From Scyliorhinus canicula (Eukaryota), in NCBI RefSeq assembly GCF_902713615.1, contig NC_052157.1, positions 61,530,146 through 61,594,145 of the forward strand: a stretch of DNA of 64,000 nt, read 5' to 3'. Each line of letters opens with the position of its first letter. The stretch's first letter is position 1. Position numbers and translations under genes: made by a program. The notes beneath the pieces are model-generated. The model was given only the letters and a program-made list of their open reading frames with translations, searched no databases and was not told the origin of the DNA. Shown in pieces: positions 16,070 through 47,271 of this stretch.

Positions 16070-17400
16070 GAGGGGTAGGTGTGGTTAATCATGTCAAAGG
16101 CTGCAGAAAGGTCAAGAAGGGCAGGTTTCTCTTCCTCACAGTCACATAAGGTGCCATTAGTGACTTTCTTTTTTTAAATCTGGAGTACCCAATTCATTTT
16201 TTTCAATTAAGGGGCAATTTAGTGTGGCCAATCCACCTACTCTGCACATCTTTGGGTTGTGGGCTGAGACCCACGCAAACACTGGAAGCATGTGCAAACT
16301 TCACATGGACAGTGACCCAGAGCCGGGATCGAACCTGGGACTTCAAAGAACAAAGAACAAAGAAAAGTACAGCACAGGAACAGGCCCTTCGGCCCTCCAA
16401 GCCCGTGATTCCCATCCTATTGTCAAATAATTTACAGTGCAGAAGGAGGCCATTGGGCCCATCGAGTCTGCACCGGCTATTCATGTATTTGTCAAGATGC
16501 CGCTGAAATGTCACGATCGTCCCTGCTTCCACCACCTCCTCCAGCAGCGAGTTCCAGGCACCCACTACCCTCTGTGTAAAAAACTTGCCTCGTACATCTA
16601 CTCTAGACCTTTCCCCTCGCACCTTACACCTATGCCCCCTAATAATTGACCCCTCTACCCTGGGAAAAAGCCTCTGTCTATCCACTCTGTCTATGCCCCT
16701 CATAATTTTGTAGACCTCTATCAGGTGGCCCCTTAACCTCCGTCGTTCCAGTGAGAACAAAACAAATTTATTCAACCGCTCCTCATAGCTAATGCCCTCC
16801 ATGCCAGGCAACATCCTGGTAAATCTCTTCTGCACCCTGTCTAAAGCCTCCACATCCTTCCGGCAGTGTGGCGACCAGAATTGAACACTATACTCCAAGT
16901 GTGGCCTAACTAAGGTTCTATACAGCTTTGGCACCGTGAGGCAGCAGTGCTATCCAGTGTGCCATCGTGCTGCCCCGTCATTAGTGACTTTAATAAGAGC
17001 TGTTTCAGTACTGTCACCGTGGCAGAAACCGGATTGGAAGGGATCAAATATGGAGTTCCTGGAGAGATGTGAACGGATTCGGAAGATGAAAACATGTTCA
17101 AGGATTTTGGAGAGGAAAGAGAGGTTGGAGATGGAATGGGAGTTTATAAGGACAGTGGGGTCAAGGGTTGTTTCTTTGAGGAGAGAGTTGTTTGAGGCAG
17201 ATTTGAAGGAGAGAGGGATGACACATGAAAAGCGAGAACTGTTAACAATATCAGTTGATATGAGGATCAGGAGGGGATGTTGTGTGGCTAGCAACTTACT
17301 GGGAATAGTCAAGGGAAGAGGAGATAGCCCTGATGGAAAAGATGTGTTCACAAAGGACACGAGAGAAGACAGGTGAGAAACTGGAAAAAGATGTGAGTTC
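16070..17400 (-). mobile_element. L2 LINE RT fragment hosting a V-SINE (about 16165-16972) that itself hosts a CR1 3' fragment (about 16345-16925)
   Basis: L2-type RT SNLSFLSKILE...FQSGF...STETALIKVTND. SINE TSD cattagtgacttt on both sides. CR1 C-terminus LYRTLVRPHLEYSVQFWSPH splits the SINE head. Confidence 0.85.
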
Positions 17401-17829
17401 AGGGATAGGGGGGGGGAGGGGGGGGGGGGGGGGGGGGGGGGCATCAGTGGCGTTTGTCATAGTGGATTATTGGAAGGGAGGGTCAAGACAGAGGCAGCTG
17501 ATTCGATTGTCTCAATCTTCGTGACACAGAATCCAGTGTTTTCTTTGAGGAGGATGTTTTCCCTGTAGACATCAGGAGGATCCTGAACCCAGAGGAGAGA
17601 AAGCAAGATGAGTTAAGATGGAGGTTGAAACCTCCGAGGATGGGAATTTATTCAATGCAGACAGAGTGAGGAAGGCAGTGAAGATATCTTGGTGAGAAAT
17701 AGAAAATCATTAAAAACAGTGATGCTGGTTAACACGGCCACAAAACAAGCAAATCAAACACTAGGATGTATTATTTCCCATTGAGTATTGAATGTGAATT
17801 GTTGAGGAATTATATAACACAGCACTTAC

Positions 17830-18186
17830 CAGAAACCTGAAGCTGGGTTACAGGTTCGTAGCTGTATTTATTATGGTCCTCAAATTCTATTCTGAAATAA
17901 TATCTTCCTGCGTCTTGTTGTCTGACGTTGTTTATTATCAGGGAACAGTTGTCATCTTCCAGGTCTCCAGACAGCCGGGTCCGATGCTGGAACTGTGTTG
18001 ATATAATATTCTGATCCTTGGAATGAAAGGCTGTAGTTCCACTGTTATCGTAATACCAGATTCCAACACGCGGTCGGCTTGCCAAGTGCATTGGGTAACT
18101 GTAATTACATGGAATCTGTACACAGGAACCTTTCTCCGCTGTCAACTTTTCTGGAATGTTGGCTTTCCACTCTTGTGACAGTCCAA
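17830..18186 (-). CDS. Intact V-set Ig exon of a Siglec/CD33/MAG-like lectin (copy 1)
   Basis: 357-bp phase 1-1 exon with tttctctctgcag acceptor and gtaagt donor. Siglec-type Cys pattern GSCVQIPCNY...DNCSLII, F-strand YYFRIE retaining the sialic-acid-binding Arg, and G-strand KYSY. Confidence 0.9.
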
Positions 18187-18729
18187 CTGCAGAGAGAAAT
18201 ATCAACATTTAACACCGCATAGTTTGTAGATACACTCAATCAACATCTACCCCTTCCGTCATTGATGCACATGACTGCAGTGTGGACAATCTACAGGACA
18301 CCAAAGGAACTCCCCAAGATTTTACAATGGATGGAAGATAATCCTGGATACAGGAGTGGACAAGTGTATCCTACATTGTCTCATGGGCCTCAGACCCGGT
18401 TTAGTTAAGTCAGTCTTCCACCCTACTCAGTGTCTACAAGATGAAATCAGATACATGCAGACAAAACAATGGATTAGGAGCCCTCAGAACTCCCACCATT
18501 ATCACCAATCATGAATCACTCATTTGCCTCACCTTCCTGGATCCTCACTGTCTCAGACTGCAGTTCCTATTGTAATATGTGTTTGAGGGTTAGCAGCATG
18601 ACATCATGAGAGTGGAAGTGTATCATGTGACCAATCTCAGTTTCACTTTGGCCTGTGAGCAGAACATAGCACACACAGCTCTGTTACTGGGGTCTTCCAG
18701 CTTTCATCCATTTTGATCGGAAAAATGGA

Positions 18730-19798
18730 AAGGCAACTTATCTAAATGGGGAGAGACTTTGGGTGCTCCAATGCAGAGGGATCTGGGTGTCCTTGTTTAT
18801 GCATCACAGAAAACTAGCTTTTATAGCTGAAGAAATAGAGTATAAAGGTAAGGAAGTGTTGTTGCAACTTTACAAGGCATTGGTGAGACATGGAGCATTG
18901 TGCACAGTTTTGGTCCCATTAATTGCGTAAAGATGTAGTGGCATTGGAGGCAGTTCAGAGGAGGTTCACTCGATTGATTCTAGAGAAGGGCAGCATAGTA
19001 GCATAGTGATTAGCAAAGTTGCTTCACAGCTCCAGGGTCCCAGGTTCGATTCCTGGCTTGGGTCACTGTCTGTGTGGAGTCTGCACGTTCTCCCCGTATC
19101 TGCGTGAGTTTCCTCTGGGTGCTCCGGTTTTCTCCCACAGTCCAAAGATGTGCGGGTTAGGTAGATTGGCCATGTTAAATTGCCCTTAGTGTCCAAAACA
19201 TGTTAAGTGGGGGTTACTGGGTTACGGGGATAGGGTAGATACATGAGCTTCAGTAGGGTGCTCTTTGTAAGGGCAGGTGCAGACTCGATGGGCCGAATGG
19301 CCGCCTTCTGCACTGTAAATTCTATGTGATTCTGTGAGATGAAGGATTTGATTTAAGAAGAGAGATTAAGCAGTTTAGGCCTCTACTCGAGTTATGAAGA
19401 ATGAAGGGAGGTTAAATTGAGATATAGAAGGTGATAAAGGGTGTGATAAGGTAGACATGGAGCAGATTCTTCCTCTTGTGGGGCATTCTAGAAACATCTA
19501 GGTCATAGTCTCAGGGTAAGGGGGAGCAAACTAAAACAGAGATGAGGAGAAAGTACTTCTCACAAAGGGTTTTGAATCTGCAATTTGCTTCCCCAGTTTG
19601 CCGTGCAAGTTGGGAAAGTGAATAAATTTAAGGAAAGGACAGACAGATTTTTAATTCGCAATGGGTTGAAGGGTAATGGAGAACGGGCAGGACAATGGAG
19701 TTGAGGGCATGATGCGATCAGTCATGATCGTATTGAACGATTGAGCAGGCTTGAGAGGCTAAATTACCTACTCCTCCTCTTAGCTCTCATGTTCTTAT
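18730..19798 (+). mobile_element. CR1-type LINE 3' fragment split by a V-SINE (about 18985-19330)
   Basis: Degenerate RT C-terminal sequence (ttggaggcagttcagaggaggttcact) on both sides of the SINE, plus a CR1-like 3' tail. Confidence 0.75.
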
Positions 19799-20224
19799 TG
19801 TTACATCACCCTGGGTGAGTTCACGGTCAATTCCAGCCCACAGACCCCGGCGTCCCAACATAAGTGAATTAACCAATAATTTGCGCTTTCTGAAGACCGT
19901 TAACCCTTCACTGGTCCAATGAGTTACAGACACCAGATTTATAAGTAAAACAGGAACAAAATATTTATGAATAAAAAGGAGAAAAGATGAACATAAATAA
20001 GGCAACAACAGGACAGCCGTCTCCCAGTTTACCTAATCCCAAGATTCCTTCCCACCCTCTACCCAGATACACACAAGATAGACACAGGGCAAGGGTCGGC
20101 GGGGAATGAAATAAAATAGGGATTAAACAGGTAGGTTTTGAAATGAGACTTCACTGCTGTGGTTGCAGTCTCTGGGAAATAGGTTTACTTGAGAGGTTCA
20201 GGTTGGCGCAATTCTGACCTTCGA

Positions 20225-21146
20225 CCACCAGATGGCGCTTCACCTAAGAATTCTCGGTCGATGTGATCCCACTTTTTTTTTATTTTAAAAATCTTTTTAT
20301 TGTCACAAGTAGGCTTACATTAACACTGCAATGAAGTTACTGTGAAAAACTTTCATCCCCACATTCCGGCACCTGTTCGAGTACACAGAGGGAGAATTCA
20401 CAATGCCCAAGTCACCTAACAGCACGTCTGTGGGAGGAAACCGGAGCACCTGGAGGAAACCCACACACTCACGGGGAGAATGTGCAGACTCCGCACAGAC
20501 AGTGACCCAAGCCGGGAATCGAACCTGGGACCCTGGAGCTGTGAAGCCATAGTGCTAACCACTATGCTGCCGTGCTGCCTATCTTTCGCCACCAGGTGGA
20601 GCAAAGGCCGGGGAGTTCAGATCAGTGCCATTCTCATTGTCGGCCACCAGACGGTGCTGTACACAGGATATTCAGATCGGTGCACTTCTGCCTTTCTACC
20701 ACCAGATGGAGCTTTCACCTCCCTGCGAGGACAATACAGCTCTGATCCTGGAATTTAGCAGTTTTCATTGGCCTGATTCCTGTACAACACTGGCGGTTTT
20801 ATCGCAAATGCTGCGACTTAAAGCTTTAATTCTTCAGCACTTCCCAGCCTTTGACACACGCGTTTGAAGGTTGCTGATCTGTGGGAAAACTTGTATTTTT
20901 ACCACTCAAGTTCTCTTTCCCAGTTCTGTTGGCTGTCTTTGCTCCTTTCACAGATTTGCCTCGGATGCTTTTAAAATCGACCTGCAGAGAGAGGTAAGAG
21001 AGAGGCAGTCCTCAGGATGGTTGCTCGTTGGCTTCTTAACAGGACTGAGCAAAAGATAGCACTCTCCAGAAAACCCGCCTGTGATGAGATGCCGATGTGT
21101 TATATAATAGTTGGATGGTGTGAGACCACCAACCAGCAGGTGGCGG
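20225..21146 (+). promoter_or_regulatory. Cluster of five same-orientation CTCF-like motifs
   Basis: CCACCAGATGGCGC 20225-20238, CCACCAGGTGGAGC 20589-20602, CCACCAGACGGTGC 20644-20657, CCACCAGATGGAGC 20699-20712, CCAGCAGGTGGCGG 21133-21146. Another copy is at 32028-32041. Confidence 0.55.
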
Positions 21147-21459
21147 TACAGATACACCATGCTGTCTTCAGACCAAGATCATGTGACCTGGGACCCGGAT
21201 ATAAAGGGAGACACATCCAGCCATCTTCAGAAGAAGATTGAGAGGTTACTAAGACGTGCGTGTGATTGGCCAGTGCGATGTAAGTTCCAGAGGAGTAGCA
21301 ATACTCCATGATAACGTGCTCTGTATCAGATTGCCATCTTACCACAAGACACAATAAAAGGATCCTGGTTTGGACATATCGAAATGTTTGGGGAGTTACT
21401 TCATAAAGTACAAGGGACCAAACACAACATGGTACCACGAGTGCTGAAGATTTGAAATG

Positions 21460-23002
21460 GCAATGGCAGTGACAATGTTAGGCAATCGGCTTGAAGACTG
21501 GTCTGGTGAACTGCAACCTGAGGCAACCCAACGTTAAAAAAATACTGAAGTTTGAGATGGACGGACTGAGGGCCTCCCACCAGCTTCAGATGTCCAGTAA
21601 CGTAAATGAGAACAGGCGGCTGTTCAAATAGCAATTCGAACTTTGTTTCGGCTGTCAGACTGCAGGCCCAGCCTGATGAAAGGCTAATGAACTGGCAAAT
21701 CTGGCCGTTTCACTCCAATCACTCAAACTTATAACTCGTTTGTCTTTGAACGTGACGGGTGTCAGAAAAATTCTGATGAAGTTCCAAAGCGCTTTGAGCA
21801 GCATTGTCCCCCCCCCCCCCCCCCCCCCCCCAAGAAGATTGAAACTTTTGAAAGCTACATGATTTATATGCGTCCCCAGAGACCTGGCGAATCATTTGAC
21901 AGTTTTGTCACAGACTTGAGGCTGAACGCCCAGTCATGCAACTTCGGGGACTTAAAATTTGCCTTAATCCACAACCAAATTGTCTTTAGTTTGCTTGATG
22001 ATAAGCATAAGGTGATATTATTGCGGGAGGAAGCTTTGGTATTGGAAAAGGCAGTGAAGATTTGCCAGGCGAGCGAGATTGCTGCACAAAGAGTCGGCGC
22101 ACTCTGCTCAAAAGGTTTTGGTGTCAACGTGGATGAAGATGCCAGTGTCATTCGTGCTGTGACGCACATCATAAAGAAACATGGTCTCAGTCCGGTGGCC
22201 ATTTTAAGCAGCCGATCGGAGCCGCCGCCATCTTGTGCCAAAAATGTGGCACTCGACATCCTCCACGGCAATGTCTGGCCTATGGAAAAATTTGTTCCAG
22301 GTGCGGTGAGACTTTGCTGATCGGTCAGGGGTCAAGATAGACTTCGGCACAAGACTCTAGAGACCTTATATCTTTGCAAATTAGTGGGGCAGCACGGTAG
22401 CACAGTGGGTAGCACTGTTGCTTCACAGCGCTAGGGTCCCAGGTTCGATTCCCGGCTTGGGTCACTGTCTGTGTGGAGTCTGCACTTTTTCCCCGTGTCT
22501 GCGTGGGTTTCCTTCAGGTGCTCCGGTTTCCTCCCCAAGTTCCGAAAAATGTGCTGTTCAGTGAATTGGCCATTCTGAATTCTCCCTCAGTGTACCTGAA
22601 CAGATGCCGGAATGTGGTGACTCGGGGCCATTCACAGTAAATTCATTGCAGTGTCAGCCTACTTGTGGCAATAAAGATTATGAAAATCGTTTATTGTCAC
22701 AAGTAGGCTTTAAATGAAGTTACTGTGAAAAGCCCCTAGTCGCCACATTCCGGCACCTGTCCGGGAAGGCTGGTACGGGAATTGAACCGTGCTGCTGGCC
22801 TGCCTTGGTCTGCTTTAAAAGCCAGTGATTTAGCCCAGTGTGCTAAACCAGCACATATTATGGTGTTCTCAGTGGCAGGTATAAAGTACACAATACTCTT
22901 TCATTTTGTAGATTAGGATGTGGACTTAGTCATTGGTATAAAATCGTGTGAATCCTTGAATATAATCGAGCGGATAAATCTCCTCGGAGACAGCTGGTCA
23001 CC
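21460..23002 (+). pseudogene. Gypsy gag and protease remnants, with two SINEs at about 22385-22680 (+) and 22682-22855 (-)
   Basis: MRPQRPGESFDSFVTDLRLNAQSCNFGDL...LEKAVKICQASE (gag). VIGIKSCESLNIIERIN (protease C-terminus) just before the satellite. Confidence 0.8.
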
Positions 23003-26000
23003 TGAGCACAGTGAATCACTCTGTACACAGTGCATTACGGTGTGCACAGTGCATTACGGTGTGCACAGTGAATGACTGTGTGCACAGTGCATCACGGTGA
23101 GCACAGTGAATCACTCTGTACACAGTGCATTACGGTGTGCACAGTGAATCACTGTGTGCACAGTGCATTACGGTGAGCACAGTGAATCACTCTGTACACA
23201 GTGCATTACGGTGTGCACAGTGAATGACTGTGTGCACAGTGCATCACGGTGAGCACAGTGAATCACTCTGCACAGTGCATTACGGTGAGCACAGTGAATG
23301 ACTGTGTGCACAGTGCATTACGGTGTGCACAGTGCATTACGGTGTGCACAGTGCATTACCGTGTGCACAGTGAATCACTGTGTGCACAGTGCATTACGGT
23401 GAGCACAGTGAATCACTGTGTGCACAGTGCATTACGGTGTGCACAGTGAATGACTGTGTGCACAGTGCATTACGGTGTGCACAGTGAATCACTGTGTGCA
23501 CAGTGCATTACGGTGTGCACAGTGCATTACGGTGAGCACAGTGAATCACTGTGTGCACAGTGCATTACGGTGTGCACAGTGAATGACTGTGTGCACAGTG
23601 CATTACGGTGTGCACAGTGCATTACGGTGTGCATAGTGAATGACTGTGTGCACAGTGCATTACGGTGTGCACAGTGAATCACTGTGTGCACAGTGAATCA
23701 CTGTGTGCACAGTGCATTACGGTGTGCACAGTCACAGTGCATTAAGGTGTTAACAGTGAATCACTGTATGCACAGTGCATTACGGTGTGCACAGTGAATC
23801 ACTGTGTGCACAGTGCATTACGGTGTGCACAGTGAATCACTGTGTGCACAGTGCATTACGGTGTGCACAGTGAATGACTGTGTGCACAGTGCATTACGGT
23901 GTGCACAGTGAATCACTGTGTGCACAGTGCATTACGGTGTGCACAGTGAATCACTGTGTGCACAGTGCATTACGGTGTGCACAGTGAATGACTGTGTGCA
24001 CAGTGCATTACGGTGTGCACAGTGAATCACTGTGTGCACAGTGCATTACGGTGTGCACAGTGAATCACTGTGTGCACAGTGCATTACGGTGTGCACAGTG
24101 AATGACTGTGTGCACAGTGCATTACGGTGTGCACAGTGAATCACTGTGTGCACAGTGCATTACGGTGTGCACAGTGAATCACTGTATGCACAGTGCATTA
24201 CGGTGTGCACAGTGAATCACTGTGTGCACAGTGCATTACGGTGTGCACAGTGAATCACTCTGTGCACAGTGCATTACGGTGAGCACAGTGAATCACTGTG
24301 TGCACAGTGTATTACGGTGTGCACAGTGAATCACTGTGTGCACAGTGCATCACGGTGAGCACAGTGAATCACTCTGCACAGTGCATTACGGTGAGCACAG
24401 TGAATGACTGTGTGCACAGTGCATTACGGTGTGCACAGTGCATTACGGTGTGCACAGTGCATTACCGTGTGCACAGTGAATCACTGTGTGCACAGTGCAT
24501 TACGGTGAGCACAGTGAATCACTGTGTGCACAGTGCATTACGGTGTGCACAGTGAATGACTGTGTGCACAGTGCATTACGGTGTGCACAGTGAATCACTG
24601 TGTGCACAGTGCATTACGGTGTGCACAGTGCATTACGGTGAGCACAGTGAATCACTGTGTGCACAGTGCATTACGGTGTGCACAGTGAATGACTGTGTGC
24701 ACAGTGCATTACGGTGTGCACAGTGCATTACGGTGTGCATAGTGAATGACTGTGTGCACAGTGCATTACGGTGTGCACAGTGAATCACTGTGTGCACAGT
24801 GAATCACTGTGTGCACAGTGCATTACGGTGTGCACAGTCACAGTGCATTAAGGTGTTAACAGTGAATCACTGTATGCACAGTGCATTACGGTGTGCACAG
24901 TGAATCACTGTGTGCACAGTGCATTACGGTGTGCACAGTGAATCACTGTGTGCACAGTGCATTACGGTGTGCACAGTGAATGACTGTGTGCACAGTGCAT
25001 TACGGTGTGCACAGTGAATCACTGTGTGCACAGTGCATTACGGTGTGCACAGTGAATCACTGTGTGCACAGTGCATTACGGTGTGCACAGTGAATGACTG
25101 TGTGCACAGTGCATTACGGTGTGCACAGTGAATGACTGTGTGCACAGTGCATTACGGTGTGCACAGTGAATCACTGTATGCACAGTGCATTACGGTGTGC
25201 ACAGTGAATCACTGTGTGCACAGTGCATTACGGTGTGCACAGTGAATCACTCTGTGCACAGTGCATTACGGTGAGCACAGTGAATCACTGTGTGCACAGT
25301 GTATTACGGTGTGCACAGTGAATCACTGTGTGCACAGTGCATTACGGTGTGCACAGTGAATCACTGTGTGCACAGTGCATTACGGTGTGCACAGTGCATT
25401 ACGGTGTGCACAGTGAATCACTGTGTGCACAGTGCATTACGGTGTGCACAGTGAATGACTGTGTGCACAGTGCATCACGGTGTGCACAGTGCATTACGGT
25501 GTGCACAGTGAATCACTGTGTGCACAGTGCATTACGGTGTGCACAGTGAATGACTGTGTGCACAGTGCATTACGGTGAGCACAGTGAATGACTGTGTGCA
25601 CAGTGCATTACGGTGTGCACAGTGCATTACGGTGTGCACAGTGCATTACCGTGTGCACAGTGAATCACTGTGTGCACAGTGCATTACGGTGAGCACAGTG
25701 AATCACTGTGTGCACAGTGCATTACGGTGTGCACAGTGAATGACTGTGTGCACAGTGCATTACGGTGTGCACAGTGAATCACTGTGTGCACAGTGCATTA
25801 CGGTGTGCACAGTGCATTACGGTGAGCACAGTGAATCACTGTGTGCACAGTGCATTACGGTGTGCACAGTGAATGACTGTGTGCACAGTGCATTACGGTG
25901 TGCACAGTGCATTACGGTGTGCATAGTGAATGACTGTGTGCACAGTGCATTACGGTGTGCACAGTGAATCACTGTGTGCACAGTGAATCACTGTGTGCAC

Positions 26001-27985
26001 AGTGCATTACGGTGTGCACAGTCACAGTGCATTAAGGTGTTAACAGTGAATCACTGTATGCACAGTGCATTACGGTGTGCACAGTGAATCACTGTGTGCA
26101 CAGTGCATTACGGTGTGCACAGTGAATCACTGTGTGCACAGTGCATTACGGTGTGCACAGTGAATGACTGTGTGCACAGTGCATTACGGTGTGCACAGTG
26201 AATCACTGTGTGCACAGTGCATTACGGTGTGCACAGTGAATCACTGTGTGCACAGTGCATTACGGTGTGCACAGTGAATGACTGTGTGCACAGTGCATTA
26301 CGGTGTGCACAGTGAATCACTGTGTGCACAGTGCATTACGGTGTGCACAGTGAATCACTGTATGCACAGTGCATTACGGTGTGCACAGTGAATCACTGTG
26401 TGCACAGTGCATTACGGTGTGCACAGTGAATCACTCTGTGCACAGTGCATTACGGTGAGCACAGTGAATCACTGTGTGCACAGTGTATTACGGTGTGCAC
26501 AGTGAATCACTGTGTGCACAGTGCATCACGGTGAGCACAGTGAATCACTCTGCACAGTGCATTACGGTGAGCACAGTGAATGACTGTGTGCACAGTGCAT
26601 TACGGTGTGCACAGTGCATTACGGTGTGCACAGTGCATTACCGTGTGCACAGTGAATCACTGTGTGCACAGTGCATTACGGTGAGCACAGTGAATCACTG
26701 TGTGCACAGTGCATTACGGTGTGCACAGTGAATGACTGTGTGCACAGTGCATTACGGTGTGCACAGTGAATCACTGTGTGCACAGTGCATTACGGTGTGC
26801 ACAGTGCATTACGGTGAGCACAGTGAATCACTGTGTGCACAGTGCATTACGGTGTGCACAGTGAATGACTGTGTGCACAGTGCATTACGGTGTGCACAGT
26901 GCATTACGGTGTGCATAGTGAATGACTGTGTGCACAGTGCATTACGGTGTGCACAGTGAATCACTGTGTGCACAGTGAATCACTGTGTGCACAGTGCATT
27001 ACGGTGTGCACAGTCACAGTGCATTAAGGTGTTAACAGTGAATCACTGTATGCACAGTGCATTACGGTGTGCACAGTGAATCACTGTGTGCACAGTGCAT
27101 TACGGTGTGCACAGTGAATCACTGTGTGCACAGTGCATTACGGTGTGCACAGTGAATGACTGTGTGCACAGTGCATTACGGTGAGCACAGTGAATCACTG
27201 TGTGCACAGTGCATTACGGTGTGCACAGTGAATCACTGTGTGCACAGTGCATTACGGTGTGCACAGTGAATGACTGTGTGCACAGTGCATTACGGTGTGC
27301 ACAGTGAATCACTGTGTGCACAGTGCATTACGGTGTGCACAGTGAATCACTGTATGCACAGTGCATTACGGTGTGCACAGTGAATCACTGTGTGCACAGT
27401 GCATTACGGTGTGCACAGTGAATCACTCTGTGCACAGTGCATTACGGTGAGCACAGTGAATCACTGTGTGCACAGTGTATTACGGTGTGCACAGTGAATC
27501 ACTGTGTGCACAGTGCATTACGGTGTGCACAGTGAATCACTGTGTGCACAGTGCATTACGGTGTGCACAGTGAATGACTGTGTGCACAGTGCATTACGGT
27601 GTGCACAGTGCATTACGGTGTGCACAGTGCATTACGGTGTGCACAGTGAATCACTGTGTGCACAGTGCATTACGGTGTGCACAGTGAATCACTGTGTGCA
27701 CAGTGCATTACGGTGTGCACAGTGAATCACTGTGTGCACAGTGCATTACGGTGTGCACAGTGCATTACGGTGTGCACAGTGAATCACTGTGTGCACAGTG
27801 CATTACGGTGTGCACAGTGAATCACTGTGTGCACAGTGCATTACGGTGTGCACAGTGCATTACGGTGTGCACAGTGAATCACGGTGTGCACAGTGCATTA
27901 CGGTGAGCACAGTGAATCACTGTGTGCACAGTGCATTACGGTGTGCACAGTGAATCACTGTGTGCACAGTGCATTACGGTGTGCA
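23003..27985. repeat. About 5-kb satellite of two related 19-mers (gtgcacagtgaatcactgt / gtgcacagtgcattacggt) with 1.0-1.2 kb higher-order repeats
   Basis: Direct reading. The rare variant gtcacagtgcattaaggtgttaac recurs at 23731, 24837, 26021 and 27013 (spacings 1106, 1184, 992). Confidence 0.97.
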
Positions 27986-28600
27986 GTGTATGAGGATTCA
28001 GATGAAATCCCAGTGGAATATGACAAACGAGGCACAGCGACGGAACTGCCAGCGAGCATTCCTCAATTCTGGTTAACAGTCTTGAAGAACGTGAATAGAC
28101 TCAATGGCATGATATGAGGATATGATGAACCCGTATTAAAGCATCTGTGAGATGTGAGTGTTAAATGGACAGAGATTGACAAGCCATGGAGCTTCACTCA
28201 CGACTCACGACCACTGAAATCATGTGTGGATGAGCCGCAGATCATCGGCTGCATTGGCTGCACAATTGATTGGAGAGGGGGAAAACATGTAGCAGTACAA
28301 ACAATTCAAACAAAACCAAAATACAGAGGTCGGACCGATCCATGAACCATGACCGATCCATGAACAGTGACAAGACCCATATCCAAGGAATCGTTCTTCA
28401 ACTTCTTTGGCGGTCAAATAAAAGGCTGATTTTGAATTTGGCGCAGTTTCAAAAACAATTAATTCCGTATGCAAAGTCATGTTTTTCAGGTGAAAAGACT
28501 GACGATGATACTGAATCCAAGGCCGACTACTATGAAAATCTGTTTGAGATTACTGACGATGGTGAAGGTGAGACGGATGAGGAACACTATGAGCTGCTTG
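27986..28600 (+). pseudogene. Divergent intronless nucleosome assembly protein 1 (NAP1/NAP1L)-like domain, disrupted
   Basis: IPQFWLTVLKNV...YDEPVLKHL, IIGCIGCTIDWRGGKHV, SKESFFNFF, ADFEFG...LIPYAKSCFSGE plus an acidic tract. These match the NAP1-family motifs IPEFWLT, GCTGCQIDWKKGK, SFFNFF, ADFEIG...YFTGE. Stops, frameshifts and an internal deletion are present. Confidence 0.88.
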
Positions 28601-28693
28601 TACAAGCCTTCTCCAGCGGCACAGATGAGGCTCCAGTGGCACGGCTCCAGTGGTCGGCAAGCAATGACAAGGTGGTCACAGGGAACATACAGG

Positions 28694-30409
28694 GTGACAT
28701 TCTTAATGAGTACTTTGCATCGGTATTCACCAAGGATAGGGACAAGACGGATGTTGAGGCTAGGGATGGATGTTTAAATACCCTTGGTCAAGTTGTCATA
28801 CGGAAGGGGGAAGTTTTGGGTATTCTAAAAGACATTAAGGTGGACAAGTCCCCAGGACCGGATGGGATCTATCCCAGGTTTCTGAGGGAAGCGAGGGTCG
28901 AAATAGCTGGGGCCTTAACAGATATCTTTGCAGCATCCTTGAGCACGGGTGAGGTCCTGGAGGACTGGAGAATTGCTAATGTTGTCCCTTTGTTTAAGAA
29001 GGGTAGCAGGGATAATCGAGGGAATTATAGACCTGTGAGCTTGACGTCAGTGGTAGGCAAACTGTTGGAGAAGATACTGAGGGATAGGATCTATTCACAT
29101 CTGGAAGAAAATAGACTTATCAGTGATAGGCGGCATGGTTTTGTGCAGGGAAGGTCATGTCTTACAAACCTAATAGAATTCTTTGAGGAAGTGACAAAGT
29201 TAATTGATGAGGGAAGGGCTGTAGATGTCGTATACATGGACTTTAGTAAGGCGTTTGATAAGGTTTCCCATGGCAGGTTGATGGAAAAAGTGAAGTCGTA
29301 TGGGGTTCAGGGTGTACTAGCTAGATGGATAAAGAACTGGCTGGGCAACAGGAGACAGAGAGTAGTGGTGGAAGGGAGCGTCTCAAAATGGAGAAGGGTG
29401 ATTAGTGGTGTTCCACAGGGATCCGTGCTCGGACCACTGTTGTTTGTGATCTACATAAATAACCTGGAGGAAGGTATAGGTGGTCTGATTAGCAAGTTTG
29501 CAGATGATACTAAGATTGGTGGAGTTGCAGATAGCGAGGAGGACTGTCAGAGAATACAACAAAATATAGATAGATTGGAGAGTTGGGCAGATAAATGGCA
29601 GATGGAGTTCAACCCAGGCAAATGCGAGGTGATGCATTTTGGAAGATCAAATTCAAGAGCGGACTATATGGTCAATGGAAGGGTCTTGGGGAAAATTGCT
29701 GTGCAGAGAGATCTGGGAGTTCAGGTCCATTGTACCCTGAAGGTGGCAACGCAGGTTGATAGAGTGGTCAAGAAGGCATACAGCATGCTTGCCTTCATCG
29801 GACGGGGTATTGAGTACAAGAGTTGGCAGGTCATGTTACAGTTGTATAGGACTTTGGTTCGGCCACATTTGGAATACTGCATGCAGTTCTGGTCGCCACA
29901 TTACCAGAAGGATGTGGATGCCTTGGGTGCAGAGGAGGTTCACCAGGATGTTGCCTGGTATGGAGGGTGCTAGCTATGAAGAAAGGTTGAGTAGATTAGG
30001 ATTGTTTTCATTGGAAAGACGGAGGTTGAGGGGGGACCTGATTGAAGTCTACAAAATTATGAAAGGTATGGACAGGGTGGATAGCAACAAGCTTTTCCCA
30101 AGAGTGGGGGTGTCAGTTACAAGGGGTCACGATTTCAAAGTGAGAGGGGGAAAGTTTAAGGGAGATGTGCGTGGAAAGTTTTTTACGCAGAGGGTGGTGG
30201 GTGCCTGGAACGCTTTACCAGCGGAGGTGGTTGAGGCGGGCACGATAGCATCATTTAAGAGGCATCTAGACAGGTATATGAATGGGCGGGAACAGAGGGA
30301 AGTAGACCTTGGAAAATAGGAGACAGGTTTAGATAAAGGATCTGGATCGACGCAGGCTGGGAGGGCCGAAGGGCCTGTTCCTGTGCTGTAATTTTCTTTG
30401 TTCTTTGTA
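28694..30409 (+). mobile_element. 5'-truncated CR1 (HER1-like) LINE
   Basis: RT motifs YRPVSLTSVVGKLLE, MDFSKAFDKV, VPQGSVLGP, FADD. One frameshift near 29930. 3' tail ttttctttgttcttt. Short atac duplication at the ends. Confidence 0.92.
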
Positions 30410-31700
30410 TACCAGACCCCGCTGGACTCTGTGGAGTGTGGGAGTTTGGAGATGGCGAGCTCTACGATGTCTCCCTGCTAGCTCCCAGCAAAATGGAGAA
30501 TCTGTGGCCATTTGACGCCAGTTTCCCTGGTGTGAAAGACCACAGTTTTCACAACGGTGTGGGGACTTAGACCCAAAACCGGAGAATCCAGCCCCACATA
30601 CCTCTGAGGGCAGCATTTCCAAGATCGGTACAATTTCTTGCGCCTTTGGTTCCCTTAATAGCCGATCTTCAGCAGTATCAACAGCCTTGAATTCTACATG
30701 CGACATCTCCAAACTCTCGCTCTCCACAGAATCCAGCGCGGTCTGGGCGTCCCCCGTGACCACTTCGTCATTGCTGCCAGAACACTGGAGCCTCATCCGT
30801 GCTGTTGGAGAAAATCGGGAATTCAGCCGGATTTCGGGGGGGGGGGCAAAGAATTTTAAAACCGGCGCCGCTCCCGATTTCGGCACCAAAAGGATTCTCT
30901 TTGGGGAATCCAGCCCCAATGTCCCGCCACGAGTCCTTGAAACAGCTCCAGTAATTTACTCCCAGGCAGTCTGCTTGGGAGTAAATGACGAGTGGGAGGA
31001 TATAGATGAAGATGCTGATTGCAGCGTTGTGGAGGTTGCAATATGAGGCGACTCTGACACTGACTCCGAGAATGGCCTAATGACCATCTCATTATGCAGC
31101 TCCTTGGACCACTGACACATTTGCGAGTTCGATCTGGAAGACCCAGGGCTTGGATCAGCTAAGCCAGACACTATAGTCATCTGCAGTGATGACAAGCAAG
31201 TCACCAATGCTCCGTTTCTGCACTAGTAACCAAGGTGATCCAGCATGTTGATGGGGCCGCAGAAATGGGCGTTCTCACACCAAACAGAGATCCAGAAATG
31301 CCGAGACCTCTTCGGATACCTCACCACATGACAACAGCCAGTGCCACACCAGAGGCTGTTACAAAGAAGACAACCAAGAGACACACTAGAATACTTCAAC
31401 GTGTCCAGAAAGTGAAAAAGTAAAGGAAAAGACTGGGATGACCACCGCATCCCGCCAGCCAACCAGTATCAAAAGTACTGGCAGGTAACAAGCAGCAATA
31501 TGCCAGAAAACGAAAGAGAAAGTGACTGGTAACGCAAATCTAGCAGTCTTGGACACAGGCCTTTCAAAATCACAGGGCGAAGCGCAAGAAAAGCAAGCAA
31601 CCGATAAGCAAGCCAGATTCTGCGGAGGTGGGAACCAACTTGAAACAATGGCATCTACGTAGAATGCAAATGGACACTTTTGTAAAAACTTGTTCACTGT
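30410..31700 (+). pseudogene. Decayed low-complexity coding tail of the Gypsy element, with two MITE ends and an inverted segment
   Basis: Acidic DEWEDIDEDAD, TIVICSDD and basic ARKRKRK*LVTQ segments. ggagaatccagcccc MITE ends at about 30596 and 30918. Confidence 0.55.
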
Positions 31701-33690
31701 ACCAGCTACATACCAGATCTGTATAAAATGTAATGTGTAATGTTGCCTGTAAAAATAATTTAATATAAATGTTAGGTGGATTGGCCATGCTAAATTGCCC
31801 GTAGTGTCCTAAAAAGTAAGGTTAAGGGGGGGGTTTGTTGGGTTACGGGTATAGGGTGGATACGTGGGTTTGGGTAGGGTGATCATTGCTCGGCACAACA
31901 TCGAGGGCCGAAGGGCCTGTTCTGTGCTGTACTGTTCTATGTTCTATGTTCTATGTTTTGTGAGGAAGTAGGAATGTGGTGATATGCCTACGGGCAATAT
32001 CATAGTTGGAAGGTGTGTGGCCTTTAACCAGCAGGTGGCGGTACAGACACACCATGCAGTCTATAGACCAAGGTCACGTGACCTGGGACCCAGATATAAA
32101 GGGAGGTACATCTGGCCACTTTCAGAAGAAGTTTGAGAGGTTAACAAGACATACACCTAGCACTGACCAATTACATGTAAGTTCCAGAGGAGTAGCAAGA
32201 CTCCATGATAATGTGCTTTGAATCAGATTGCCATCTTACCACACGAAGCACAATAAAAGGATTCTGATTTGGACATATCAAAGTGTTTGGTGAATTACTT
32301 CATAAAGTACAAGGGGCCAAACACAACACCGCCTTCTTCCCTGAAGGCTCCTGACTAGATTCACCAACCTCAGGCCTGACAGTAGAAGGTTGAAAGTCCT
32401 ATTTGCACTGATTGCCTGCTTGCCAAGTCTCTCAAACGACATCACAGATTCTGCCACAGTAGCCAAAGGGGATGTTTTCGGACCAGCCCATCTGAAAGGG
32501 GGTTTGTCCCAGTGTCCAAAGTCTACAATTTAAACAGAAACCCCAAAGGCTGCAGTAACTTAGCAGCAGCCAGCCCCGAAGAATGTATATCACAACAGGC
32601 AGCAGGATGGGCATGAAAAGAGAACACAGGACAGACAGATAATATCCAAACATTATGCTCTGAGAAGGAACAATTCTGTCTAATTCCACCTTCCAGCTCT
32701 TGGTCTGCAGTCCTATAGGTAACAGCACCTCAAGCACAAATTTGGTGTTCTTGACTAATAAGCAAATTTCTTGATTAATGAGGGGATCAGGGGTTATGGG
32801 GAGAAGGCAGGAGAATGGGGATGAGAAAAATATCAGCCATGATCGAATGGTGGAGCAGACTCGATGGGCCGAATGGTGTAATTCTTCTCCTGTCTTATGG
32901 TCCTTCTATCTCTGTATATCTGTTCACATGTGTCTTGTCTAAATAAGTGAACCCACAACATATTTACACAATCCCTGATGAGTGACTGATGCCCTTATAT
33001 CATTATAAAAACACAAGATAATGTTAAGCGGTTGTCAAACATCCTGGCAGTAAGATTCAGTACAAGTACGACATGGTGAACAGCCTTAGATCATGCTACA
33101 TGGTATGAGACCACACTTGATATTTTTCTCAGACCACAACAGAGTCGCAGTGTCAGAGAGTGTTGAAATCGTAGCCTGCTGATTGGGCAGGAAATCTTTG
33201 AAAATAGAAACATGGACAGGAAGCGATTGGCAATTTAAAACATGACAGTGATGTACACAATGAGGTGACGAGTGTTGATTAATATTTCACTTTACACAAA
33301 TGTCCTGAAATTAATTGAGTACTATAACCCATAATGATCTCTCGAGGCACTTCAAAGTAACAAAAAATATCAGAGTTTGTTCAACGGTTGTGCTTCACAG
33401 TTATGATGCAATTGTTGAAAAATTTCACATTTCAAACTGTTGATCTCATGGAACACGTAGATACAGTCACACCTTCCGAAGTGTTAGCCAAGATTGGTAT
33501 TATCTGCCCTCAGACAGCTGACAAGTTCTGGTCATTGGCCACGATCGACGCAGGGAAAGAGCTAACACATAACTCCTGTGAATTCTAAAAGACATGGAAG
33601 GCCATGACAAAACCGACTGCTGTGAAACTTTCATTGTGCAATGGTTCACTGATTCCATTTGCACGTTCCACAGTCCTGGATTGCAAGTAT

Positions 33691-35096: not shown

Positions 35097-35991
35097 GGCT
35101 GTGATTCAATGGCCATGCTGTTCCTGAAAAGTAGCTCGCTGTGGTGCAGCAGAGCCGATAAAAGCCCGGAGAACTCGCTTCCGGGATCTACCTGGCTGAA
35201 AAAACGTCACGCGATCCAACGCGATCTCACGAGACATTGCGATGTAAATCCCGTCCACAATGGGTCTCACTTTAATGTGCATATTTCTGAGTTACCTGGG
35301 GCTTTGAGATTTACCCTCTTCACCGTGGAGGCCTTGGGCATGCGCTGTTCAATACTGGTCTCCAAATTCCCCAAATTCAGGGACCAGATGGAACGGCACT
35401 TGTGCGGGTCTCCCACAGGATCGGAGGACCCCAGTTCCTTCCCCCTGAGCAAGACAGTGCCCTGGCACTCCTCGGCACCCTGGCAGTGCCATCCTGGCAC
35501 CTTCACAGTGCTACATGTGTGCCAAACTGACATTACCAAGGTGCCCCAGGTGTACTGCCAGCTGGCATGGGCACTGCCATGGTGCCAAGCTGACATTGCC
35601 AAGGTGCCCCATGTGTACTGCCAGCTGGCATGCGCACTGCCATGGTGCCAAGCTGGCATTTTATTCTGAAAATGTATGATTTGCCAGGGGGTGCCCTGAG
35701 GGGTTATGGGTCGGGAGGGGGCTGGGACCCTCCTATAGTATGTTTCGGCTGGGAGGGTCGGGTTTCGCTTCGGGGCCTCGGAGATTGGGACGCCATATCA
35801 AAATGGAGCCCCGTTCTATCGCTACACTGGCGAGTTCCGGCGAGTGGGGCTCCCCAGTGTACAAAGTGGGGCTGTGTGTGTCCTTGGCCCTGCTGAGGCC
35901 CCTTATACAACGCCAGTCACTGTGAGTGCTTGAAACATGTGGCTAAACGTGCTCGCTATGGGACTTTGTTCCCAATTAGTTGAATCGCGCC
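35097..35991. mobile_element. PIF/Harbinger-type non-autonomous element
   Basis: Ends ggctgtgattcaa / ttgaatcgcgccc flanked by att. Internal tandem units ctggcatgggcactgccatggtgcc. Confidence 0.65.
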
Positions 35992-37190
35992 CATTGTGTG
36001 TACTCTGTCATCATGGCCGTTTTCATTGGCTTGAATAAACATCCTTTTACTTACCTTCTCTGGTCTCCTAGGTCTTCGTAGTCTTTAAATTATCTGAAAT
36101 TGTAGAATGCTAGGGCAGCGCAGCGCAGTGGTTAGCACTGCCGTCTCAGGGCACCGAGGGCCCGGATTTGATTCCGGCCCTGGGTCACTGTCCATGTGGA
36201 CTTTGCACATTCTTCCGGTGTCTGCGTGGGTCTCACCCCCACAACCCAAAGATGTGCACAATAGGTGAATTGGCTACGCTAAATTGCCCCTTAATTGGAA
36301 AAAAATAATTGGGTACTCAAAATTTATTTTACAAATCATTGTAAAGAAGTAAAGAAGGAGGCCATTCAGCCTTTTGTGATTGTGCTAGCTCTTTGAAAGA
36401 TCTATCCAGTTTGTCCCACTCCAAAGTTCTGCAAATTTATCCCCTTCAAGTATTTATTCAATTTCCCCATTTTGGAAGTTCCTCTTCAATCTGCTTTCAG
36501 CGCCCTTTCAGCCAGTGAGTCAATGGTCTCCATCTGAGCTGCAAAGTTCAGAGATTCTGTGAAATTTCAACTTTGCAGCAGATCACAGATAATCTTAAGA
36601 ACTAGAAATATTTCACACCTTTCTCCACTGACCGCTTTAACTTCCTTCTCTCTTTCAGTTATCTTGCACCCTTATTGAAGTTTCCAGCGTGGTGAGTATG
36701 GACAGGAAGTGTGACGCTGAACAGCCCGTCTATTCTCGGAGCTGCTGTGTTGTCCTCATGGGAAATTCTGACCAAATTTCAGGCCATTAACATTGGAGTC
36801 TCAGCATCGGGATAGAATTCATTCCCCAGTTTTTATCTCTACTCAAACTATCACCTCCTCATTAACTTGCTGAAATACATTGGTGCGCAGTACAGCAGCA
36901 GCTCGAGTTTACGATTCTCATCTGCAATTTTCAAATAGTCCCATTGCCCTCTCCATTCCCCATCTCTGGGCCAAGTCCAGCCCTGGAACCCTCTGAATTA
37001 TCTGCCCTTTCCCAATTCTGCTGCCAGACAGGGAGTCAGCATATCTCAGTGAGGGTGATGGGTGAATGGGACTTGGTGTGGGTTTGTCCACTGGGTCACT
37101 GCTGAATAGGTTCCCAATCAGAGCTCAATAAGAATGATCGTTTATAAACACTATTAACGATAAATTTTTTCGAACTGAAGATGATATTAC

Positions 37191-37271
37191 CTTGAAGAAG
37201 TGAGAAGAGGAAATAAGATTTCCCGATCATTGTCCCCTCCAGATATTTCATCAGCTTCTCACTCTCAAACT
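37191..37271 (-). CDS. Leader (signal peptide) exon of the Siglec-like gene
   Basis: Acceptor ctttctctttcag, ATG at 37230, MIGKSYFLFSLLQ plus one base, then gtaata donor (phase 1). Joins the 18186 V exon in frame to give MIGKSYFLFSLLQVGLSQEWKA. Confidence 0.72.
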
Positions 37272-37607
37272 CTGAAAGAGAAAGGAGTTAATGAGATCTC
37301 ACCTCTTGTCCGATAACTCTCGAGCAAACTGCTTTTAAAATATTCATTGGATTCTGTGTGGGATGATAGGTGTTCTGCAGAGAGTGACAAGGCTTTAAGA
37401 AGAAACCTCAATAAGGGACTCCCATTTCTATAGCGCCTTTCACCATCTCAGGATGTCCTAGAAAGATGTTCTGTACAACAGACGTGAGCCTCAAATCCAG
37501 ATCTCAATGAAAAGCTGAAATCTTTCAATCATTAGAATCTGTCTTTGTAAAGTCACAACATCCACAATGTGAGCCATAGAAGTGAATTCCAATCGTTAGT
37601 TACTTAC

Positions 37608-37680
37608 CCACGACCTTACCCGCAGCCTTTACCAATAAACCCCCAAACCTCAACTCAGAGGCAGGAAATCTGGCATTCAA
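37608..37680 (-). other. Candidate 5' non-coding exon, paralogous to 43638-43760
   Basis: Donor gg/gtaagtaa. The intron-side sequence (aaagtcaca.catc.aca...aattcca...tacttaccca) is shared with 43565-43640. The 5' boundary is a guess. Confidence 0.45.
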
Positions 37681-37749
37681 GTTTCCAATCCAGAATCTTA
37701 AGTTTCATGATCCTGGTAAATACTTTCTAGAATAATTACAGGGGGAGAA

Positions 37750-38345
37750 CCAGTACTGAAAGGATGCCACAGTTAGAAGGTCAGTACTGAGAATGTGCTG
37801 CACTGTTGGAGGGTCAGTACAGAGGGTGCACTGCACTGCCAAAATGTTAGGCATGAAGCGGTGTATCAGTTTTGGTGGACTTGTACTGAGGGACTGTCAC
37901 AATGTCAGACGATCAGTACTCTGGGAATACTGCATTTTCTGATAGTCATTAGTAAGGGAGTGCTGCACTGTCGGAGTGTCAGTCCTGAGGGAGAGCTGCA
38001 TAGTCGGAGGGTCAGCACTGAGGGAGTGCTACACTGTTGGAGGGTCAGAACTGAGGAGGGCTGCATTACTGGATGGTCAGTACTGAAGGAGTACCACACA
38101 GTTGGAAGGTCAGGACTAAGGAAGTGCTGCACTGTCGCCAGGTAACTACGAAGGGAATGTGCACTGTTGGAGTTTGCATTGTAGGAGGGTCAGTACTGAG
38201 GGAAGGCTGCACTGTCAGTGGGTCAGTACTGAGGAAGTGTAGGAATGTTGGAGCGTCAGTACTGAGGAGTACCACACTATCAGGGGGTCAGCACTGAGGG
38301 AGTGCTGCACTGTTGAGGTTCTGTCACGAGGGAGTGCTCCACTGT
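37750..38345. repeat. Degenerate ~33-bp tandem array (gtcagtactgagggagtgctgcactgtcggagg)
   Basis: Direct reading. A second array of the same unit lies at about 42980-43460. Confidence 0.85.
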
Positions 38346-38640
38346 TGGTGGGTCAATACAGACAGAGTGTTGAACTTGCAGTCGTCCGGGCAAATGGGGA
38401 GCTGGTGGTACGCGGATCTGAGGTCCACCGTGGAAAAGACCTTGTATTGTTCAATCTGATTGACCAAATCAGATACGTGGGGAAGAGGGACCGCGTTGAG
38501 CTGCGTATACCTGTTGATGGTCTGGCTATAATCGATGACCATCCTGTGTTTCTCCCCGGTCTTTACGACCACTACTTGAGCTCTCCAGGTGCTGTTGCTA
38601 GCCTCTGTACTCGAGACCTCTCGCAATGAAGGCCAACCTA
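38346..38640 (-). mobile_element. Gypsy RT fragment
   Basis: WRAQVVVVKTGEKHRMVIDYSQTINRYTQLNAVPLP...FSTVDLRSAYHQLPI. Confidence 0.85.
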
Positions 38641-38649
38641 CCATTAACT

Positions 38650-43637: not shown

Positions 43638-43780
43638 CCAGGATCTGTCCGGCTGCTTGACTGGAGAGCTAGTTTCGACACAATCTGCTTGGATTGAATG
43701 AGTTCTTCCTCTGCTGCTCCCTCTGTGCATTTCACCAGAAAGGCTTGATCTGTCACTTTGACTCAAAATGAGGAAGCTGT
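43638..43780 (-). promoter_or_regulatory. Candidate first exon/promoter of the Siglec-like gene, with ETS/PU.1-like GAGGAA sites
   Basis: Donor gg/gtaagtaa at 43637. aaaatgaggaagct at 43765-43778 and agaggaag (minus) at 43705-43712. Confidence 0.4.
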
Positions 43781-47270: not shown

Positions 47271-47271
47271 A

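Follow-up and report, generated by a model that had tools for sequence, protein, structure and literature searches.

Defective transducing retroviruses carry Gag-onc fusions, depend on helpers and represent short-lived, somatic oncogenic events. RSV, WEHV and v-kit are named as transducing examples in work on crocodilian ERVs, among which CrocERV29 carries KIT-ligand and CrocERV31 carries nectin3, both from captured host mRNA (PMC4299795). As described there, these ERVs are retroviruses whose host-derived ORF is intronless and evolves under purifying selection; they are present in 6–9 copies and in several species, keep pol, and encode a secreted or membrane cargo that either lies between pol and env or takes the place of env (PMC4299795). 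Drosophila telomeric elements with fragments of nxf2, piwi and aub are a further case in which a transposon takes a host gene of a genome-control pathway; the fragments reported are 140–235 bp in length and act as RNA (PMC13534243). The capture of host genes by LTR elements is already known. A search of the literature proper, as distinct from Repbase and Dfam, returned no described chromatin-factor protein replacing pol in a high-copy vertebrate Gypsy element.

In this study, we describe a Ty3/Gypsy family of the catshark Scyliorhinus canicula with the layout LTR-Gag-protease-NAP-tail-LTR, approximately 4 kb in length and devoid of RT, RNase H and integrase. The K02A2.6-like Ty3/Gypsy elements, which we take to be of the Mag type, share with it a one-frame CCHC Gag and protease, a tRNA-Leu primer-binding site (PBS), a polypurine tract (PPT), TG..CA LTRs and a 5 bp target-site duplication (TSD). 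The catshark family differs from them in exchanging RT, RNase H and integrase in frame for a domain of NAP1L1 origin followed by a new tail, and in a protease motif that drifts away from DTG. It resembles the crocodilian ERVs in being an LTR element with an intronless host ORF, purifying selection and several copies and species; whereas those keep pol, the catshark Gypsy element has kept only the protease of pol, its cargo is probably a nuclear chromatin protein and is fused to Gag, and matches number at least about 180 loci. With the Gag-onc retroviruses it shares the capture of a host mRNA at the expense of replication genes, the Gag fusion and, as we infer, helper dependence, but its lineage is inherited through the germ line, with element evolution amounting to approximately 0.59 substitutions per site. 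Unlike the Drosophila fragments, approximately 700 bp of NAP1L1 has been retained as protein while nucleotide identity decays. The NAP chaperones themselves have in common with the element-encoded copy the earmuff domain, the start of the acidic C-terminal tail and a PF00956 match over the cut-off; the catshark copy, however, lacks the N-terminal tail and the dimerization helix, has eroding acidic patches and is fused to Gag-protease and to a non-host tail of approximately 300 residues.

The window analysed is a stretch of 64 000 nucleotides, and the features in it lie on the + strand except where stated. It contains an element bounded by a 5′ LTR (21080–21429) and a 3′ LTR (31975–32328), paired by BLAST and both with TG..CA termini, and flanked by an exact 5 bp CCGCC duplication (21075–21079 and 32329–32333). 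The PBS (21430–21443) is complementary at 13 of 14 bases to the 3′ end of the host tRNA-Leu(TAA) gene plus CCA, and the PPT occupies 31956–31974. An earlier sequence-only reading had joined the paired LTRs, the TSD, the PBS and the purine tract into one Gypsy element, and all were confirmed; its LTR divergence of about 20% proved slightly too high (83.6% identity by BLAST; 297/350 aligned sites; K2P 0.17). Insertion of the family elements is shown to be of the integrase type.

Between these ends Gag and protease remnants are present and RT, RNase H and integrase are absent, as had been read from the letters; the sole RT within the 21080–32328 span belongs to a nested LINE. Gag (21470–22306, start approximate), with the capsid and zinc knuckles (22236–22307), is frame-broken and is followed by a deletion of approximately 310 bp, by which the N-terminal half of the protease, including the active-site region, has gone. 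The C-terminal half (22301–23005) survives as two pieces, 22301–22385 and 22863–23005, split by SINE-like repeats (approximately 22386–22862). A 38 bp satellite of approximately 130 units (23006–27985) extends from there to the intronless NAP1L1-derived earmuff domain and acidic tract (27986–28600), in which the NAP part has four stops, frame breaks and a deletion of approximately 65 bp; its fragments match Pfam PF00956 with E values of 2e-4 and 2e-5, under the curated cut-off. The start of the non-host tail (28601–28696) is in frame with the acidic tract and is interrupted by the nested, 5′-truncated LINE with RT (28697–30408, boundaries approximate), presumably of the CR1 type. Beyond it lie a tail segment (30595–30823, − strand) whose inversion is private to this locus and has a short duplication at its breakpoint, the remainder of the tail (30919–31773), which is acidic and Ser/Thr-rich with a basic end, and a SINE-like nested insertion (31771–31955). 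The claim of a stop-free run stands for the passage from the acidic tract into the tail (open at 28441–28707) but not for the NAP part upstream; nested insertions are present as the LINE and the SINE-like element, but the satellite of approximately 5 kb grew out of the element's own protease–NAP linker and is not foreign; and the tail does resume towards the 3′ end, but with part of it locally inverted. The element in the window belongs to a non-autonomous Gypsy family with many copies, of which it is a dead and decayed one.

On the evidence of Gag and protease, on which its placement rests, this family is classed as a non-autonomous derivative of Ty3/Gypsy. The database proteins nearest to its Gag are teleost K02A2.6-like and Ty3-type Gag-Pol proteins (27–29% identity), and autonomous copies in the same genome show 67–69% nucleotide identity to early copies, the LTR being included in one; 69% is the figure for the closest autonomous copy among those sampled. 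Locus L232, considered as a shared-LTR link to a helper, resolved into separate insertions. The NAP segment is not confined to the window: all 40 scored candidates of a DNA search of the genome (40 of 665) match it, and all 144 scored candidates of a Pfam search (the best 144 of 2050) exceed the PF00956 cut-off. An LTR search gave 2331 first-look candidates, 40 of which were scored. NAP lies downstream of the family gag at 21 of 30 loci chosen by gag alone and RT at none (0/30), while two of the 30 skip NAP, each with its own private breakpoint. Gag/protease is found within 3.5 kb upstream at 65 of 77 NAP loci, and an RT match accompanies a single one of the 77, at a distance of 4.5 kb. The copies examined are decayed. 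Natural stop-free frames join the zinc knuckle, protease and NAP (356 amino acids) and NAP and the tail (387 amino acids); less broken copies reach an E value of 7e-47 for PF00956, over the curated cut-off. Within the length limits that apply to them, word-index homologue searches with late copies gave no Gag-protease-NAP fusion, and a whole-library search gave one among the best 150, from S. torazame. Several RefSeq entries named 'NAP1L1' in two catsharks are transposon copies.

The captured segment crosses seven host exon junctions free of introns, a comparison of sequences which shows that spliced mRNA of host NAP1L1 was the source of the NAP part. The in-frame fusion lies at the protease/RT boundary, where RT would begin, and eight of 11 early copies have a common 5′ capture junction. 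The N-terminus and dimerization helix of NAP were found at none of the 77 NAP loci, and the helix was never captured. The element NAPs form a single clade (100/99) among shark NAP1L1. In a tree of 70 rows (nine of 79 were dropped: one gave no protein hit, a long insertion broke up another, and seven were partial or poorly aligned), the seventy copies make up one ladder-shaped lineage that descends from approximately 85% to approximately 60% identity with the host gene. Early copies are 84–85.5% identical to host NAP1L1. The window's subfamily is only about 55–63% identical, which is not the closeness to a host paralogue that the earlier reading had set as a ground for refutation. Gag and NAP distances correlate with a rho of 0.91 (47 copies); one origin of the family NAP and its descent together with gag are shown. 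That an ordinary NAP1L1 retrocopy landed in a dead LTR element would agree with an intronless, host-mRNA-derived segment, but its probability is practically nil: identical junctions and context recur at dozens of unlinked loci, poly(A) and a TSD of its own are lacking, natural copies have NAP in one reading frame with the protease and the tail, the trunk is under selection, and the host N-terminus occurs in the genome only as four exon matches. The same absence of TSD and poly(A), the many loci and the non-neutral trunk refute a LINE-made processed pseudogene. A structure predicted for a late NAP has low confidence (pLDDT 51); its best Foldseek matches are NAP1L1, speaking to fold identity only, and the predicted β-sheet core agrees with NAP1L1 structures.

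Selection on the captured frame was estimated with a purpose-written codon-model script, for which the nucleotide tree was fixed. The early and middle copies had been chosen as top NAP scorers, which may push omega down, and the late clade by DNA likeness to the window. Omega for NAP is 0.38 on the trunk, 0.50 on side branches, 0.82 on tips and 0.07 in the host (LRT for branch classes 42.9 with 2 df; a trunk omega of 1 is rejected at 58.7), with values of 0.32 on the later trunk and 0.33 on the late-clade stem. Twelve site bootstraps place the trunk at 0.34–0.50 versus 0.75–0.87 for tips, and shifted-frame controls show no drop (trunk omega 1.5 for +1 and 1.15 for +2). Other parts give 0.14 (capsid), 0.30 (tail, alignment-biased) and 0.55 (protease). 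Silent sites drifted freely, amino acids were held, and the NAP frame stayed open over approximately 1.1 neutral-scale substitutions per site. Purifying selection thus acted on Gag, NAP and the tail during replication of the lineage, and the earlier suggestion of a NAP1 lineage that evolved inside the element is upheld by a trunk that is not neutral. A tip omega below 1 (0.82, LRT 18.8) could be read as a sign that the host uses certain copies as genes, but such domestication is highly improbable as the source of the constraint, which falls on internal branches and includes Gag. The 70 tree rows hold 134 stops, and even of the best 144 candidates (of 2050) most lack a stop-free NAP frame. We give still less credence to an RNA-level decoy resembling Drosophila TART-nxf2, in which small RNAs would act against host NAP1L1 or the resemblance would deter silencing. 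Comparable captures have been described and early copies are close to the host gene, but host-targeting piRNAs are reported as almost absent at approximately 80% identity (PMC13534243), late copies are only approximately 60% identical, and silent sites drift while amino acids are held; for the window's subfamily, omega below 1 at low nucleotide identity largely refutes a decoy.

Because the NAP omega of 0.38 lies well above that of the capsid and above that of the tail, part of the NAP constraint may be fold maintenance only. In a rival reading, NAP would be a useless folded passenger, with selection merely purging misfolded fusions that poison Gag assembly. Late-copy residues keep their class at 84% of hydrophobic versus 41% of acidic positions, and the catalytically altered protease likewise has an omega below 1, both in keeping with a passenger. 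Such a burden would, however, be shed by a deletion or by a stop behind Gag, yet the frame remained open throughout and the two NAP-skipping gag loci have differing private breakpoints; omega is also low in the polar, basic and acidic site classes, and a short motif persists in a low-complexity tail. We consider the passenger quite unlikely.

The surface of the domain changed along the lineage. The net charge of the NAP core moves from −6.7 in early copies through +0.5 in middle copies to +3.5 in late copies, and the acidic earmuff surface, largely kept early, is lost in the late (window's) subfamily. With the yeast patches mapped by eye, no more than 4% of late copies retain the host acids before helix 8 (HBR2), and the HBR1-like acids are mostly lost there. 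In CeNAP1 the earmuff and acidic tail of one monomer bind H2A–H2B, and yeast Nap1 is described as using both monomers (PMC9128123), a point against such binding by a domain that has no dimerization helix. The loss of acids counts against plain histone chaperoning in the window's subfamily; histone binding in early subfamilies was probably similar to that of NAP1L1, and the window's subfamily probably moved it to the tail. A complex prediction for host H2A and H2B with the NAP of a window-clade neighbour copy gave no answer (score 0.09). The protease motif passes from DTG (seven early copies) through DMG/DIK to DPK or variants in the window's subfamily, and is deleted in the window copy.

The tail has no match in Pfam, no usable match in the ESM Atlas and no match past the acidic exon in 100 kb of the host NAP1L1 locus. 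A SUMO-interacting motif (SIM) has, in its general form, a hydrophobic core beside Ser/acidic residues (PMC12295420), and a tail heptapeptide, IVICSDD at 31173–31193 of the window, would by resemblance fit this form, its hydrophobic core being flanked by Ser and acidic residues. Under patterns written after the sequences had been seen, the SIM-like motif occurs in 31/70 copies, across all subfamilies, versus 0/70 antisense, a looser pattern in 39/70 versus 11/70 and a tail basic cluster in 29/70 versus 1/70. No intronless SUMO was found among 31 PF11976 matches. The hairpin region, which contains the NLS in yeast Nap1 (PMC9128123), has an omega of 0.22–0.24, among the lowest, while the earmuff acids erode and the tail terminates in a basic cluster. 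These features suit a module in which NAP takes the particle or cDNA complex to the nucleus, or shields basic nucleocapsid or helper integrase, rather than handling histones, and human Nap1 is reported to chaperone the basic retroviral protein Rev (PMC13255070). Rev, however, is described as binding the acidic concave face of the dimer (PMC13255070), which late copies lack, and the conserved SIM-like motif would be left unexplained; we regard this as a minor possibility.

We lean, by a modest degree, towards a single-frame fusion of Gag, protease, NAP and acidic tail that acts as a particle-borne nuclear chromatin-accessory factor; the role of the NAP domain as a nuclear chromatin factor is likely. 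NAP1L1 would have been captured by template switching onto a co-packaged host mRNA, with RT and integrase supplied in trans by autonomous relatives, which have LTR ends, PBS and PPT in common with the family. Because the fusion occupies the place of Pol, it would be packaged together with the RNA of the element that encodes it, to the advantage of that element's copies. Nuclear import signals may be provided by the hairpin of NAP and the basic tail, the acidic tail may buffer histones around new cDNA or the target site, and the SIM-like motif may engage SUMO-dependent silencing or nuclear-body proteins. Unintegrated retroviral DNA is reported to become histone-loaded and silenced (PMC8795523). 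We propose tentatively that the pirated chaperone was rebuilt into an anti-silencing protein that travels in the particle and combines parts for binding histones, binding SUMO and entering the nucleus; its passage through approximately 1.1 neutral-scale substitutions per site while the host gene barely moved is what an arms race would be expected to produce.

A search of sequencing runs with one early copy gave no RNA run among the matches listed. Four raw RNA runs gave 569, 74, 168 and 159 reads against one late copy at 80% likeness, mostly less than 90% alike, and, provided that the libraries are stranded, the interior leans to the sense strand. Signal of this kind, scattered and at a low level, carries no weight for function.

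The genome of this catshark holds NAP copies in a graded series that starts close to the host gene and ends in remodelled forms, which lets the conversion of a host protein into an accessory factor be tested. The series could also test whether non-autonomous elements repay the supply of helper enzymes by countering silencing or by aiding nuclear entry, and transposon-derived RefSeq 'NAP1L1' entries would distort gene-family counts.

The NAP segment of the window (G000:C12:61530146-61594145 of the catshark assembly) belongs to a family of non-autonomous Gypsy elements with the order LTR-Gag-protease-NAP-tail-LTR. One copy in this assembly is identical to a protein recorded for Scyliorhinus canicula, which is accordingly taken as the host. 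When the genome was searched with the segment's DNA, all 40 scored candidates matched (the best 40 of 665); among the matches listed, the same tail start was found in 27/27 distinct other NAP loci and Gag or protease within 1.5 kb upstream in 24/27. With the Pfam NAP model 144/144 scored candidates (the best 144 of 2050) lay above the cut-off, and the LTR returned 2331 candidates, none of these totals (665, 2050, 2331) being a copy number; 21 of 30 LTR candidates examined were apparently solo, and six of these 21 show an exact 5 bp duplication. NAP was matched in 77 of 78 fetched loci and Gag or protease lay upstream in 65 of the 77, in keeping with the association proposed in the sequence-only reading, while the NAP N-terminus was found in 0/77 and RT in one, distant from NAP. 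To escape the selection bias of picking by NAP, 30 loci were chosen by gag: NAP came next in 21, seven were interrupted before the flank end, two had private deletions and RT adjoined gag in none. Copies that retain both LTRs and have taken up few insertions measure about 3.8-4.2 kb. Natural stop-free frames join Gag to protease (404 aa), link the zinc knuckle across the protease to NAP (356 aa) and, as had been suspected, connect NAP to the tail (387 aa). We regard the existence of this family and of its protein-level constraint as close to certain.

In the window copy the paired LTRs (21080-21429 and 31975-32328, both with TG..CA ends and a CCGCC flank), the primer-binding site (PBS; 13/14 bases pair with host tRNA-Leu(TAA)) and the purine tract directly 5' of the 3' LTR were all found as claimed, but LTR divergence is below the claimed ~20% (297/350 aligned sites identical; K2P 0.17). 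PF00956 matches its NAP fragments weakly. Comparison with three other copies defined the damage private to this locus: a ~310 bp protease deletion, SINE-like insertions, a 5 kb satellite (23006-27985, 38 bp period) originating from the element's own coding protease-NAP linker, an inverted tail segment and a LINE insertion, the sole source of RT there. Short insertions with similar terminal motifs (30458-30594 and 30824-30918) flank the inverted segment, and the sequence suggests that a small inverted-repeat element may have caused the inversion. A segmental duplicate of ~16500-32300 lies ~126 kb downstream (G000:C12:61676000-61689000) with 96-99% identity over most of its length and just 93% between the 3' LTR copies; its satellite (61.68 Mb) is ~1.7 kb, implying that the array was resized after duplication or assembled differently. 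The window also holds several other tandem arrays (35469-47883; periods 16, 33, 63, 65 and 70) and a second, minus-strand LINE copy (~62141-63647).

The proteins closest to the family's Gag-protease are those of teleost K02A2.6-like Gypsy elements. Autonomous copies in the same genome show 67-69% identity to early NAP copies across this part (one match begins inside the LTR) and run on into RT at the point where NAP copies turn to host sequence, a switch lying within a few bases of one host position in 8/11 early copies. In the host, NAP1L1 and NAP1L4 are interrupted by GT-AG introns; the captured stretch spans seven host exon junctions without introns and ends in an acidic exon. The closest copies are 84-85.5% identical to NAP1L1 versus ~68% to NAP1L4, and identity to NAP1L1 falls to ~55-63% in the window's subfamily. 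A plain retrocopy, expected at a single locus and close to a host NAP1L paralogue, is not borne out by this identity or by the many loci, and its probability is negligible. All 19 element rows of the protein tree cluster together (100/99); the cluster branches with shark NAP1L1, leaving the ray outside (95/82), and two S. torazame proteins fall within the early copies. These relationships indicate a single capture of NAP1L1, which probably postdates the separation of sharks from rays and predates that of the two catsharks. A young autonomous Gypsy family (L223, L224, L235 and others) has intact frames of 1433-1436 residues at dozens of loci; the one copy fetched has identical LTRs, and its LTR start, PBS type and polypurine tract (PPT) are common to the NAP family.

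The copy tree (n = 70; 9/79 rows dropped) is ladder-shaped: the window's subfamily occupies its distal end, and tips measure ~0.085 in early, middle and late groups alike. Gag and NAP distances are correlated (rho 0.91, 47 copies). Under a purpose-written GY94-type codon model on a fixed tree, with frame breaks as missing data, omega (dN/dS) of NAP came to 0.38 for the trunk, 0.50 for side branches, 0.82 for tips and 0.07 for host genes. A single common element omega was rejected (LRT 42.9, 2 df), as was a trunk omega of 1 (LRT 58.7); 12 site bootstraps gave disjoint ranges (trunk 0.34-0.50, tips 0.75-0.87), shifted reading frames gave trunk values of 1.5 and 1.15, and constraint was not weaker later on the trunk (0.32 vs 0.50). 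Trunk evolution was therefore non-neutral, and the single clade, co-descent with gag and trunk constraint agree with the earlier suggestion of a NAP1 lineage evolving as an element-encoded protein; that the segment acts as an RNA decoy is highly improbable, and domestication by the host is very unlikely. Omega was 0.14 in the capsid, 0.26 in the zinc knuckles, 0.55 in the protease and 0.30 in the tail, the last from protein-guided alignments biased toward conserved parts. Tip omega below 1 (LRT 18.8) probably stems from active history not covered by the sampled copies, from the choice of the best NAP scorers or from poor model fit. Recurrent stops sit in CpG-containing codons and none is fixed, as expected for post-insertion decay. 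On the neutral scale the trunk measures 1.13 substitutions per site, the host gene since capture 0.091 and tips 0.089, and LTR-pair distances overlap among the three copy groups (0.13-0.20, 0.14-0.18, 0.10-0.18); the radiation is thus rapid on the host time scale, its period of activity being uncertain because CpG decay inflates the tips. Some copy pairs are near-identical or have very short tip branches (L085/L086 at G000:C18:82.07 and 81.98 Mb, L101/L102, L112/L126, L058/L064), probably through segmental duplication or gene conversion.

The protease motif changes from DTG via DMG and DIK to DPK. Along the lineage the NAP core holds its hydrophobic residues and loses acids: its net charge is -7 in the host, -6.7 in early, +0.5 in middle and +3.5 in late copies, and the last have also lost the acidic patch before helix 8. 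The tail has an acidic and then a basic part. Its hydrophobic-Ser-acidic heptapeptide is kept from early to late copies while flanking sequence turns over; with patterns drawn post hoc, it occurs in 31/70 copies versus 0/70 antisense (strict) and 39/70 versus 11/70 (loose). In L117 (G000:C12:133098000-133106000) an acidic EWEDIDD-type unit of the tail is expanded in tandem, and acidic tract length varies among copies (L117, also L084). The heptapeptide resembles phospho-regulated SUMO-interacting motifs (PMC12295420) and is a candidate for one. NAP proteins dimerize via a long helix, which the elements did not capture. They bind H2A-H2B with the acidic tail and with acidic patches on the earmuff; a single monomer is enough in a C. 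elegans structure, and both are used in yeast (PMC9128123).

What is established is the architecture of the family, the capture and its single origin, the co-descent of NAP with gag and the constraint. Gag and Pol form one frame in this Gypsy clade (1433 residues in an intact relative), so that NAP-tail would go into the particle as Pol does; once packaged, its product would favour its own element's RNA, which would explain selection in a non-autonomous element, and helper RT and integrase would work on the common LTR ends, PBS and PPT. We lean towards a nuclear job for NAP-tail, which would take in import, the buffering of histones near newly made cDNA and contacts with SUMO-dependent silencing. 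Retroviral DNA that has not integrated is quickly loaded with histones and silenced; NAP1L1 was among the chaperones tested, the factors named being CHAF1A/B (PMC8795523). A role in import or as a charge chaperone instead of in histone handling, for which the binding of HIV Rev by human Nap1 speaks (PMC13255070), is rather unlikely, and it is unlikely that NAP is simply a folded passenger.

The closest captures described so far occur in crocodilian ERVs, which carry KIT-ligand or nectin3 (PMC4299795), and in Drosophila telomeric elements, whose captures act as RNA (PMC13534243). The words 'nucleosome', 'histone' and 'chaperone' do not occur in the main text of a review of cargo-carrying transposons (PMC6431247), and no NAP1L1-carrying Gypsy family was found in listings of the open literature, although a repeat-library entry (Repbase, Dfam) may exist. 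Several RefSeq entries of S. canicula and S. torazame named NAP1L1 (one 'uncharacterized') are element-derived (loci L074/L104 and L075/L105; proteins P0006, P0127, P0128, P0134, P0072 and P0079, the last being Gag joined to NAP). The NAP family is a real and, as far as these listings go, previously undescribed form of gene-capturing LTR element, several copies of which are carried in RefSeq as NAP1L1 genes.
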